Virus record (IMG/VR): IMGVR_UViG_2684622770_000004
Origin: a virus
Lineage: Duplodnaviria; Heunggongvirae; Uroviricota; Caudoviricetes
Reading direction: 5' to 3' (one strand)
DNA length: 4,422 bases
Positions 2,037 to 2,873 of the stretch are shown in pieces. A model generated the notes under the pieces. That model did not search any database and was not told where the DNA came from. It saw only the letters and a program-made list of their open reading frames with translations. Both the position numbers and the translations under genes were made by a program. Positions within the stretch are counted from its first letter, which is position 1. Each line of letters opens with the position of its first letter.

Positions 2037-2450
2037 TTATTCAGTTCTGGATTTTGTCGCCCTGCGTATCCGCGCTTTCGCGTTACGCTCAATCTGTATC
2101 AGCTTTTCTATATTTCTCCGCCTTTCCTGTTCCTCCTGGCGCAATAGCCTTACATCATCTGCCAGTCTGGTTTCTCTTTTTGCCACAGAGAGCATCCAGT
2201 CAAACGGCTCCACAACCGCACCGCAGATTTTACAGCGGACCTGACGCTCTTTTTCGTCAACCCGTACAGAGGCGTGATGGCAATATGGTCTTTCCGATGG
2301 CTCATAAAGAAAATTAACCTGATTACGAGGGTCATCCTCTTTTACCGGAAATAAAACGATATTGCTTAACTCATCTTCTGGTTTTATTTCCATGCTCCTC
2401 TCCTTTGATGCGAATGCCAGCGGTAATTGAAGCCTGATAGCTAATTTCAT
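2037..2450 (-). CDS. hypothetical prophage protein with a Cys/His zinc-ribbon-like motif and a basic coiled-coil C-terminus
   Basis: Minus-strand ORF containing C-H-H...(13)...C-x2-C (YCHHASVRVDEKERQVRCKICG) followed by a charged heptad-like tail. The ATG at 2448-2450 directly abuts the upstream stop (TGAATG) with AGGAGG 11 nt upstream. An internal ATG at 2391-2393 has AAGGAG 6 nt upstream and would give 118 aa. Confidence 0.5.
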   Translation of the reverse strand: MKLAIRLQLPLAFASKERSMEIKPEDELSNIVLFPVKEDDPRNQVNFLYEPSERPYCHHASVRVDEKERQVRCKICGAVVEPFDWMLSVAKRETRLADDVRLLRQEEQERRRNIEKLIQIERNAKARIRRATKSRTE

Positions 2451-2873
2451 TCACAGTATCGCCTCCTGAAAATTACCCTGATAGAAAGCCAGTACACGCT
2501 GCATAGCTTCGCTCTTCCGGCACTCGCGACAGATTATATTCAGGCGCCTGTCGTAGCGGCGTATTTCTCCGTCAGGTAATGACCAGATAAGGTCCGGATC
2601 AACAACAACCGGTTTCCTCACCTTTACTCTCGAGAGTTTTTTGCGGGCGCTTTGCCAGTCCTTGCGAGCCTGTTCAGACGGGAATAAGCCGTAGCCAGAA
2701 TTATATACATCACCACTTGCGACCAGTTCTATGCATAAGCGACCGACAGACGCACGACTGATACCTGTTTCATCTGACAACTGCCGAATCGTGACCCGAC
2801 CGTCCTGATGCACGAGTTCCACAATTCGCGTCTTCAGTTCTTCCCGCTGTTCGGGAGTAAAAGGTTTCGCCAT
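2451..2873 (-). CDS. hypothetical prophage DNA-binding protein with an N-terminal winged helix-turn-helix (140 aa)
   Basis: Start ATG at 2873 has AGGAGG 5 nt upstream. Residues ~20-50 (DGRVTIRQLSDETGISRASVGRLCIELVASGDV) resemble AsnC/MarR-type HTH domains. The C-terminal half matches nothing I recognise. Confidence 0.6.
   Translation of the reverse strand: MAKPFTPEQREELKTRIVELVHQDGRVTIRQLSDETGISRASVGRLCIELVASGDVYNSGYGLFPSEQARKDWQSARKKLSRVKVRKPVVVDPDLIWSLPDGEIRRYDRRLNIICRECRKSEAMQRVLAFYQGNFQEAIL

Follow-up and report, generated by a model that had tools for sequence, protein, structure and literature searches.

A Ren/DUF977-Family Gene and a Zinc-Ribbon Gene in an IS600-Bracketed Remnant of a Rac-Like Prophage: Probably Two Independently Shuffled Accessory Genes

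Introduction

The DNA analyzed here, IMG/VR virus record IMGVR_UViG_2684622770_000004 (4,422 nucleotides from a member of the Caudoviricetes; the whole stretch is termed the window), is a 4.2-kb remnant of a Rac-like lambdoid prophage lying between two copies of the insertion sequence IS600 in a Shigella-type genome. Its subject is two adjacent genes, designated gene 1 and gene 2, that an earlier note, made from the letters alone, had singled out as an uncharacterised pair in the slot that holds ren and nin genes in lambdoid phages, and for which it had offered, as speculation, a regulator/effector or toxin/antitoxin-like partnership. The real genes of the window are all on the minus strand, and, as that note had seen, two linked open reading frames (ORFs) of this strand follow the gene of a helicase loader (3634..2888), which is directly upstream, and fill positions 2037..2873 exactly. 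The evidence given below indicates that these are probably two accessory genes of the early rightward (pR) operon that are shuffled independently of each other, and that they do not constitute a dedicated two-gene system. The genes and their parts, as determined by profile searches, alignments and AlphaFold2 (AF2) models with their predicted local distance difference test (pLDDT) scores, are as follows.

2873..2451 (including stop), minus strand: gene 1, DUF977/Ren-like (YdaW/'LygF' family), 140 aa
2685..2855, minus strand: winged helix-turn-helix of gene 1, residues 7-63 (Pfam, AF2 and Foldseek)
2481..2540, minus strand: C-terminal motif that gene 1 has in common with lambda Ren, residues 112-131, NIICRECRKSEAMQRVLAFY (BLASTP and hhalign)
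2422..2450, minus strand: upstream part of the spacer between the genes, specific to its context
2394..2421, minus strand: conserved 28-nt leader of the gene 2 cassette, with the Shine-Dalgarno sequence AAGGAGAGGAG; its upstream edge is the mosaic junction
2393..2037 (including stop), minus strand: gene 2, predicted zinc ribbon and long helix, 118 aa (PHROG 1621, 5e-56; coding sequence WP_001343130.1)
2346..2378, minus strand: acidic N-terminal motif of gene 2, EDELSNIVLFP, residues 6-16 (predicted to be disordered, pLDDT 53)
2208..2288, minus strand: predicted zinc ribbon of gene 2, C38-x-H40 ... C54-x-x-C57, residues 36-62 (conservation and AF2)
2043..2207, minus strand: predicted long basic helix of gene 2, residues 63-117 (AF2 pLDDT 81-95; net charge +6)
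2064..2144, minus strand: invariant core of that helix, LRxEExxRRxNIxKLIQIERNAKARIR, residues 84-110 (alignment A1)

Start and Leader of Gene 2

In its longest reading, the ORF of gene 2 (137 codons) begins at ATG 2450, immediately after the stop codon of gene 1, and it was this compact TGA-ATG layout that had suggested a coupled pair. The observation is correct for the ORF and incorrect for the gene, which starts at ATG 2393 and encodes 118 residues. Aligned homologues from about 10 genera all begin at the position of ATG 2393, with the pattern M-x-TETE-x-EL-x-NVV-x-FP, and some copies have GTG in place of ATG at this same position. The start is preceded by a strong Shine-Dalgarno site (AAGGAGAGGAG, 2395-2405), and it is also the 118-aa product that is called by the Prokaryotic Genome Annotation Pipeline. 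Because gene 2 starts at ATG 2393, the two genes are separated by a 57-nt spacer with no abutment of start and stop codons, and the apparent translational coupling is an artefact of reading the longest ORF.

The spacer is made of two unlike parts. When 14 regions upstream of gene 2 copies were aligned, homology began abruptly at GCTGGCATTCGCATCAAAGGAGAGGAGC-ATG, 28 nt before the start, whatever preceded it, and the leader GCTGGCATTCGCATCAAAGGAGAGGAGC is kept before gene 2 in at least six different upstream contexts. Beyond -28 there was no homology among these 14 regions, except in locus L036, which has the same spacer. The edge at -28 is a classic mosaic junction at which the ribosome-binding site is carried along with gene 2. 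Gene 2 is a self-contained cassette, consisting of a 28-nt leader with its own ribosome-binding site and a 118-aa ORF.

Distribution of the Two Genes

Each of the genes is far more common without the other. DUF977-like DNA, representing the family of gene 1, occurs at 5,014 places in the complete genomes of Escherichia coli (3,617 of 5,426 genomes), and gene 2 is found in 1,679 genomes, at 2,135 places; in 888 records the two are contiguous. Among 50,697 phage records, gene 2 is found in 19 and DUF977 in 25, and both are present in only 4. A sample of 80 viral contigs was taken from IMG/VR as those most similar to this allele of gene 2, and here DUF977 lies 57-60 nt upstream of gene 2 in 42 loci and is absent upstream of gene 2 in 11; in the other 27, DUF4406 and/or Ead/Ea22-like genes intervene and DUF977 is 0.6-3.2 kb upstream.

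Beyond Escherichia and Shigella, gene 2 was never adjacent to DUF977 in the loci examined, the closest approach being in a Salmonella locus, where DUF977 lies about 2.2 kb upstream. Loci where gene 2 has no DUF977 neighbor come from Klebsiella, Kluyvera, Erwinia, Pantoea, Photorhabdus, Serratia and Yersinia, and also from Providencia, Hafnia, an Enterobacter phage and Morganellaceae-like contigs. In the first group (with three Erwinia prophages) gene 2 follows NinG, NinH, RusA, YbcO or DUF1364 and stands just before a Q-type antiterminator gene, while in the Morganellaceae-like contigs it lies between Lar and DUF1367. None of the genes upstream of gene 2 in the Providencia, Hafnia, Serratia, Erwinia, Kluyvera and Enterobacter phages belongs to PHROG 142, the cluster of gene 1; Hafnia phage Meifeng encodes a MarR-like protein about 1 kb upstream of gene 2, four genes away. 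As a separate observation on these non-Escherichia loci (L003, L014-L020 and L116-L124), gene 2 is almost always the last or second-to-last gene of the nin region before Q, often with a stop/start overlap, and many of the non-Escherichia homologues have an extra conserved C-terminal tail, KEPLPLWQNERVE, that is absent from the window protein.

Several arrangements coexist even within E. coli. Gene 2 is found in the order loader, DUF1627, DUF4406, a 178-aa protein and gene 2, and in the order lambda-P, DUF1064, Ead/Ea22 and gene 2; DUF977 is lacking in the alternative E. coli contexts at loci L021 and L022; and in the Stx phage ArgO145 gene 2 lies in the early-left region behind an Ead/Ea22 gene, again without DUF977. 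Chimeric ORFs occur in public genomes, in which the N-terminus of Ead/Ea22 is joined to gene 2 or gene 2 is joined to DUF1133 (proteins P0002, P0015), together with a deletion chimera in which the N-terminus of gene 2 is fused to the C-terminus of DUF977 (P0040). The presence of three such ORFs in the databases shows that recombination and deletion around gene 2 are ongoing. It may also be mentioned that an internal Ead-like segment, 'ELEAREIKP', resembles the N-terminal 'MEIKPEDEL' of gene 2, a possible recombination hotspot.

Judged from these sequences, the adjacency seen in the window is one of several interchangeable arrangements within one operon and not a conserved module, and residence of both genes in that operon explains why they are neighbors in Escherichia and Shigella. 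The expectation that the pair would recur across prophages largely fails. Because neither the distribution nor the mosaic boundary shows a conserved pairing, the regulator/effector or toxin/antitoxin idea is unsupported.

Gene 1 Belongs to the Ren/DUF977 Family

The match of gene 1 to Pfam DUF977 (PF06163) spans the whole model (1-134 of 134) and, with 116.5 bits (1.1e-33), is above the cut-off of 22.1. Gene 1 also falls in PHROG 142, 'Ren-like exclusion protein' (2.7e-44), and its product carries the RefSeq label 'DUF977 family protein'. Hence the earlier opinion that neither protein is of a characterised family applies to gene 2, for which no function is assigned, and does not apply to gene 1. 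Both genes are real and not chance ORFs, because of their family E-values (1e-33 and 5e-56) and because of the synonymous-codon variation in gene 2 described below.

Lambda Ren itself (NP_040633, from NC_001416) matches PHROG 142 at 1.6e-41. A direct BLASTP comparison of gene 1 with lambda Ren aligns only the last 20 residues, of which 12 are identical (E 3e-7; NIICRECRKSEAMQRVLAFY versus NLVFKECRQSAAMKRVLAVY), and an hhalign profile alignment built on 30 DUF977 and 21 Ren sequences has a probability of 96.4% (E 1e-9, 87 aligned columns); both the winged helix-turn-helix and the C-terminal helix are aligned, with an insertion of about 35 residues between them in DUF977. By these profile comparisons gene 1 is the local ren-family gene of the prophage (DUF977, YdaW, 'LygF'), and the placement of the locus in the ren/nin slot is borne out in a literal way, with gene 1, directly after the loader, itself being the ren-family gene (PHROG 142, hhalign). 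Neither gene 1 nor gene 2 matches a NinB or NinG profile in Pfam or PHROG, so that the homology to these core proteins which would have refuted the earlier reading is lacking, and NinB/DUF1367 is a separate gene of the window at 443..48.

The winged helix proposed for the 140-aa protein is confirmed as a fold, and its assignment to the AsnC/MarR type is not. Two generic winged-helix Pfam models are above their cut-offs (HTH_24, 26.0 bits; HTH_IclR, 23.1 bits), and gene 1 is below those of the MarR and AsnC families (MarR_2, 21.7 versus 27; HTH_AsnC-type, 20.5 versus 27). The AF2 model, which is confident for residues 11-80 and poor for residues 85-140, has three helices (7-24, 29-36, 40-53), then a beta wing and one further helix (67-82), with pLDDT above 90 for residues 11-70, and its top Foldseek matches in the PDB are winged helices of IclR, GntR, MarR, ArsR and MntR (E about 5e-3 to 4e-2, probability about 1.0). 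By the family scores, gene 1 encodes a winged helix outside of the MarR and AsnC families. Searched against PDB sequences, the DUF977 profile gave as its best matches the Z-alpha domains (Z-DNA/Z-RNA binding) of the fish kinase PKZ (E 0.003-0.02, gene 1 residues 9-60, about 2694-2849); this probably reflects generic winged-helix similarity, given that the structure search yields ordinary bacterial regulators, and a Z-alpha identity was set aside. PADLOC gave gene 1 only weak matches at the level of the helix-turn-helix (E>=0.0017). Separately, most DUF977 genes of E. coli match this allele over the C-terminal two-thirds only (query 1-283, plus strand), and their N-terminal third, which encodes the winged helix-turn-helix, is of another sequence type, a case of mosaicism inside the gene.

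Proteins 72-77% identical to gene 1, labelled LygF or Ren-like, are found in 25 phage records, and the counterpart in E. coli K-12 is the Rac pseudogene ydaW. The literature on 'LygF' consists of a locus name from Salmonella Enteritidis with no function attached, and that on 'DUF977' gave nothing pertinent to function, only a domain survey. For Ren, work attributed to Toothman and Herskowitz in 1980 reportedly established that it gives lambda an escape from Rex exclusion. More recently, two-hybrid contacts of the Rex proteins with lambda O and Ren were described, and ren was termed 'likely involved in DNA replication' (Thomason et al., bioRxiv 10.1101/2021.04.19.439022). Ren is dispensable for P-lethality and replicative killing (PMC3640518). 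In a screen, over-expressed ydaW blocked RcaT, the toxin of retron-Sen2 (bioRxiv 10.1101/2020.06.22.160242).

Gene 2 Belongs to a Widespread Family with an Invariant Helix

Gene 2 matches PHROG 1621 over its full length (5e-56) and PHROG 8538 and 4865 more weakly, and all three clusters are of no annotated function. Conservation was assessed in a near set of 31 relatives from about 10 genera (alignment A1) and in a distant set of 62 members, all 62 of which match PHROG 1621 and 61 of which match PHROG 8538 and 4865. The family is large. A word-indexed search recovered 148 relatives, all of them labelled 'hypothetical', from Escherichia, Shigella, Salmonella, Klebsiella, Kluyvera, Yokenella, Serratia, Yersinia, Erwinia, Pluralibacter and Morganella, and an exhaustive profile search found 1,608 representatives of clusters at 50% identity with E<=1e-3, including 257 with E<=1e-10. 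No Pfam model was above threshold, there were no matches in NCBIfam, PADLOC or PDB sequences, the gene 2 profile found only coiled-coil noise among PDB sequences (E>=0.016), and Foldseek with the gene 2 model gave nothing significant in PDB and BFVD, with no match below E 0.19. Gene 2 is indeed uncharacterised, as first described.

There is also a divergent gene 2 paralogue, approximately 30-40% identical to a distant family member, in 64 phage records, many of them Stx2-converting. In phage Min27 (NC_010237, locus L128; 2475-2729) the tblastn match to this paralogue lies opposite an annotated 'hypothetical protein' coding sequence, which suggests that the strand was mis-annotated.

The protein is predicted to have three parts. 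Residues 1-35 have a net charge of -5 and are disordered in the AF2 model (mean pLDDT 74.8 for the whole protein), and within the acidic motif of this segment E6, L9, N11, F15 and P16 are invariant in alignment A1. Residues 36-62 form a predicted zinc ribbon, with four conserved ligands in two knuckles on a beta-hairpin (strands 43-46 and 51-54). The CHH...CxxC pattern noticed earlier thus holds, with C38-x-H40 and C54-x-x-C57 as the ligands, and because it is C38 and H40 that the family conserves, the first knuckle is C-x-H, using the second His of 'CHH'. All four residues are invariant in the 31 near relatives, and the 62 distant members keep C38, C54 and C57 without exception, with H40 conserved in at least 90%. 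The segment first described as a long basic coiled coil is modelled by AF2 as a single helix at residues 63-117, and it has a heptad-like seam (V70, L77, V81, L84, I95, L98, A105 and I109), with the conserved E88, R91 and E102 in core positions.

The distal part of this helix is under clear constraint. Residues 84-110 are essentially invariant in the Enterobacterales, with the pattern LRxEE..RR.NI.KLIQIERNAKARIR, and identity in the remainder of the protein drops to about 45%; the distant family retains a core of CxH, R, CxxC, DPFD and a long helix ending in L(K/E)RxERNAKARIR. In eight loci from six genera, more than one codon is used at 18 of 19 invariant residues of the helix. Because synonymous sites vary at these codons, the constraint is one of purifying selection on the protein, and an overlapping DNA or RNA element as the reason for the invariant helix is rejected on the same grounds.

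The Prophage Remnant and Neighboring Genes

The other features of the window are the following.

4318..4422, plus strand: right IS600 end, 100% identical to the IS600 copy in locus L001 (16133-16029)
4343..4080 and 3910..3641, minus strand: lambda-O-like replication initiator, a pseudogene in two broken ORF pieces
3634..2888, minus strand: DnaC/IstB-like helicase loader, annotated ydaV (PF01695, 1.1e-19; PHROG 50, 9.8e-83)
1889 to about 1247, running into a stretch of N, minus strand: QueH, epoxyqueuosine reductase (PF02677, 1.6e-65)
about 977-1130, minus strand: Hok-family (HokD-type) type I toxin, downstream of QueH
between the Hok-family toxin and NinB/DUF1367 in transcription order, minus strand: small PHROG 340 protein
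443..48, minus strand: NinB/DUF1367, truncated
1..94, plus strand: left IS600 end, 100% identical to locus L001 14963-14870, inside IS600

The right IS600 copy truncates the 5' end of the initiator gene at 4318, removing the pR/immunity side of the prophage, and the left copy truncates the NinB/DUF1367 gene. The best match to the locus is a Rac-like prophage of E. coli FDAARGOS_943 (99.8% over 2037-2873), where the order is YdaT-family toxin, hypothetical protein (the initiator), ydaV, DUF977, hypothetical protein, QueH and hokD, and, after further genes, DUF1367, DUF1364, DUF1133 and the lysis genes. Relative to the intact 260-aa gene of that strain the initiator of the window is frameshifted, with indels at about 3975-3990 and in a T-run at 4105-4112. 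The exact protein sequence of gene 1 is found on 997 contigs, of which those named are Shigella, and for both genes most records of the exact protein come from Shigella sonnei and S. flexneri.

A consensus scan of both strands at 1850-3000, which may miss weak promoters, gave no sigma-70-like site, where chance alone would give 1.6, and the signal scan found no minus-strand terminator-like site in or around the two genes. The 147-nt gap between gene 2 and QueH (1890-2036, minus strand) contains a GC-rich hairpin, imperfect and closed by a GAAA loop (CCACCCGAAAGGGCGG), with no T-run, which the terminator scan did not call a terminator. A plus-strand ORF at 1940..2317 (125 aa) was dismissed, being an unsupported antisense overlap with gene 2.

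Some side observations concern the remnant as a whole. The two IS600 copies (IS3 family) are in the same orientation and bracket the 4.2-kb fragment in a layout like that of a composite transposon; the initiator region (3641-4343) has GTAAC-type repeats resembling origin iterons; QueH, directly downstream of gene 2, is a tRNA-modification gene carried as phage cargo; and a run of 102 N at 1143-1244 covers the 3' end of QueH and the stretch upstream of the hok-like gene where a mok/sok site is expected.

Interpretation and Alternatives

The reading that is considered likely is that two accessory genes of the pR operon of a Rac-like lambdoid prophage, each shuffled on its own account, came to lie side by side. 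Their adjacency would result from mosaic recombination in which the DUF4406 and Ead/Ea22-like genes that lie between the two in sister prophages were lost or had never been included. By analogy with lambda Ren and Rac YdaW, gene 1 would be made together with the replication proteins and would protect early phage development against abortive-infection or exclusion systems, acting probably through protein and/or DNA contacts of its winged helix and conserved C-terminal helix. That it is such a replication-module-associated anti-exclusion factor is put forward tentatively, and it is probably not a regulator of the operon. For gene 2, the proposal is that it would oligomerize through the seam of its helix, acting alone, and that the invariant Asn/Ala/Lys/Arg face of the helix together with the ribbon would bind DNA or RNA. 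It is only with low confidence that gene 2 is suggested to be a zinc-dependent, oligomeric nucleic-acid binder.

Several points weigh against parts of this reading. The adjacency in Escherichia and Shigella, which holds for about half of the gene 2 copies, is above that of random placement in the genome; the IMG/VR sample, because it was chosen by similarity to the window's allele, over-represents the window arrangement. The functional equivalence of gene 1 and Ren is an extrapolation, because DUF977 is 44 residues longer and Ren misses the Pfam DUF977 model. The anti-exclusion role of Ren is itself a genetic phenotype without a known mechanism, and the K-12 ydaW allele of the retron screen is truncated. 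As to gene 2, nucleic-acid binding is argued only from charge, the zinc ribbon, small and basic invariant residues and neighboring genes of DNA transactions, and profile, PDB-sequence and Foldseek searches gave no structural or sequence homologue that binds nucleic acid.

Whether the genes do anything at this particular locus is a separate question. With pR replaced by IS600, expression here is doubtful, and there is a sizable chance, somewhat short of even, that both genes are inert cargo whose ORFs are intact only since decay is recent in clonal Shigella lineages. The IS600 ends at 1-94 and 4318-4422, the truncated and frameshifted initiator, the absence of promoter-like sites at 1850-3000, a right-end IS600 transposase (4381 onward) that reads away from the genes, and identical proteins on approximately 1,000 Shigella and E. 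coli contigs are all consistent with this. However, both ORFs and the loader are intact while the initiator and NinB are broken, outward transcription from the IS ends or from non-consensus promoters is possible, and the proposal concerns expression at this locus and not the identity of the genes.

The main alternative for gene 2, of low confidence and only slightly less likely than the nucleic-acid reading, is a host-takeover or anti-defense role. The invariant helix would then bind not nucleic acid but a highly conserved protein of the host, for instance RNA polymerase, a component of the replisome or of the division machinery, or a defense sensor. It would account for some 27 helix residues that are near-invariant across genera in a protein otherwise about 45% identical and with synonymous sites that are free, for invariant residues that lie all round the helix (resultant 0.36), as expected of a helix gripped by a partner, and for the acidic N-terminal motif, which resembles a linear docking motif. 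Gene 2 also resides among accessory genes, either in the nin region or next to Ead/Ea22 in the ea region, and a few members have weak coiled-coil profile matches to DivIC and ZapB. Yet PADLOC and Foldseek gave no match to a known inhibitor or anti-defense family, and the core motif is retained even by very distant members of high GC content, for which nucleic acid is a simpler common target than an extremely conserved protein.

Less probable still, though worth stating, is the wider proposal that the gene 2 family is an unrecognised and very widespread class of small phage effectors, in which the '...KLIQIERNAKARIR' helix and the ribbon target one universally conserved host machine or RNA element. 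As an example, gene 2 may be a binder of RNA or DNA, like an arginine-rich motif, that modulates late-gene antitermination, which fits because outside Escherichia it is habitually immediately upstream of Q.

That the two genes form a functional module, with the winged-helix protein controlling or neutralizing the zinc-ribbon protein in the manner of a regulator/effector or toxin/antitoxin pair, is very improbable. The same-strand arrangement with a 57-60 nt spacer in 42 of the 80 Escherichia-type loci, the 888 contiguous E. coli records, the layout of many toxin/antitoxin loci, where a helix-turn-helix protein is followed by a small basic protein, and the action of ydaW as a toxin blocker would all suit such a pair. 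They are outweighed by the rarity of joint occurrence (4 phage records), the want of any adjacency in other genera, a cassette edge 28 nt before gene 2 that is independent of the upstream gene, the spurious start/stop coupling, the lack of a promoter-like site for an autoregulated operon in the 1850-3000 scan, and the lack of a meaningful toxin or antitoxin match for either protein in PADLOC, Pfam or NCBIfam. Finally, read-through of the single in-frame TGA to give a DUF977-linker-zinc-ribbon fusion is scarcely credible: gene 1, the TGA and the 137-codon ORF do share one frame with no further stop, and both spacer lengths, 57 and 60 nt, are divisible by three, but an open stretch of 19 codons would arise by chance in about 40% of cases, the spacer is not conserved beyond -28, a strong Shine-Dalgarno site of its own precedes gene 2, the N-terminus of which is conserved, and no DUF977-then-zinc-ribbon fusion homologue was found, P0040 having the reverse order.

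The two-gene 'system' does not, then, exist as such. Gene 1 adds a new allele to a family that is known but poorly understood (Ren, DUF977, YdaW), and the phage family to which gene 2 belongs has been clustered before, though it is unnamed and uncharacterised. The explicit link of DUF977, YdaW and 'LygF' to lambda Ren joins escape from Rex exclusion and the blocking of a retron toxin in one family, which about two-thirds of complete E. coli genomes carry, while the zinc-ribbon/long-helix family, which is large, strongly constrained and without an entry in the domain databases, is a candidate for a DUF definition and for accessory-gene screens. The locus in addition illustrates cleanly how a mosaic junction can fall just ahead of a ribosome-binding site, and it is a warning that the longest-ORF reading can create apparent translational coupling.

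Comparison with Known Systems

Lambda Ren is among the closest known counterparts of gene 1. Both are in PHROG 142 and end in an ECRxSxAMxRVLAxY helix, and the order P-ren-ninB of lambda is mirrored in the window by loader, gene 1 and, further downstream, NinB. The two differ in length (96 aa for Ren and 140 aa for gene 1) and in that gene 1 is a full-length DUF977 protein whereas Ren has no match to this Pfam family, and the loader of the window is of the DnaC/IstB type while that of lambda is P. YdaW of the K-12 Rac prophage and the 'LygF' proteins of Salmonella Enteritidis Sdr I and of Rac-type phages are in the same Pfam family as gene 1, and the neighborhood, with ydaS, ydaT, a ydaU-like gene and ydaV before DUF977, is that of Rac. 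The gene 1 allele diverges from them mainly in its N-terminal (winged-helix) third, and the block of RcaT is the sole functional hint for YdaW/'LygF'.

For gene 2, membership in PHROG 1621, 8538 and 4865, which are unannotated clusters, gives no function. The nearest folds are the zinc ribbon of TFIIB (PF08271, 21.1-21.5 bits against a cut-off of 29, hence below threshold) and that of the ribosomal S27e type (PF01667, 13.5 against 24.5 bits), which resemble it in size and in having a beta ribbon with two knuckles. The best Foldseek match, at an insignificant E of 0.19, is 1pft, the N-terminal ribbon of TFIIB. The first knuckle of gene 2 is, however, CxH and not CxxC, and the 55-residue helix after its ribbon is lacking in those families; the likeness is a fold resemblance only.

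Small phage zinc proteins that act on transcription or translation include Ogr of P2, Delta of P4 and Com of Mu, and the ERNAKARIRR segment of gene 2, rich in Asn, Ala and Arg, loosely recalls, as a lead only, the basic regions of bZIP proteins and the arginine-rich motifs of N proteins. The searches that were run gave no sequence or profile similarity of gene 2 to these zinc regulators or basic-helix families. Gene 2 also departs from the bZIP arrangement in its order, the ribbon coming first and the helix second, with the basic segment at the C-terminal end.

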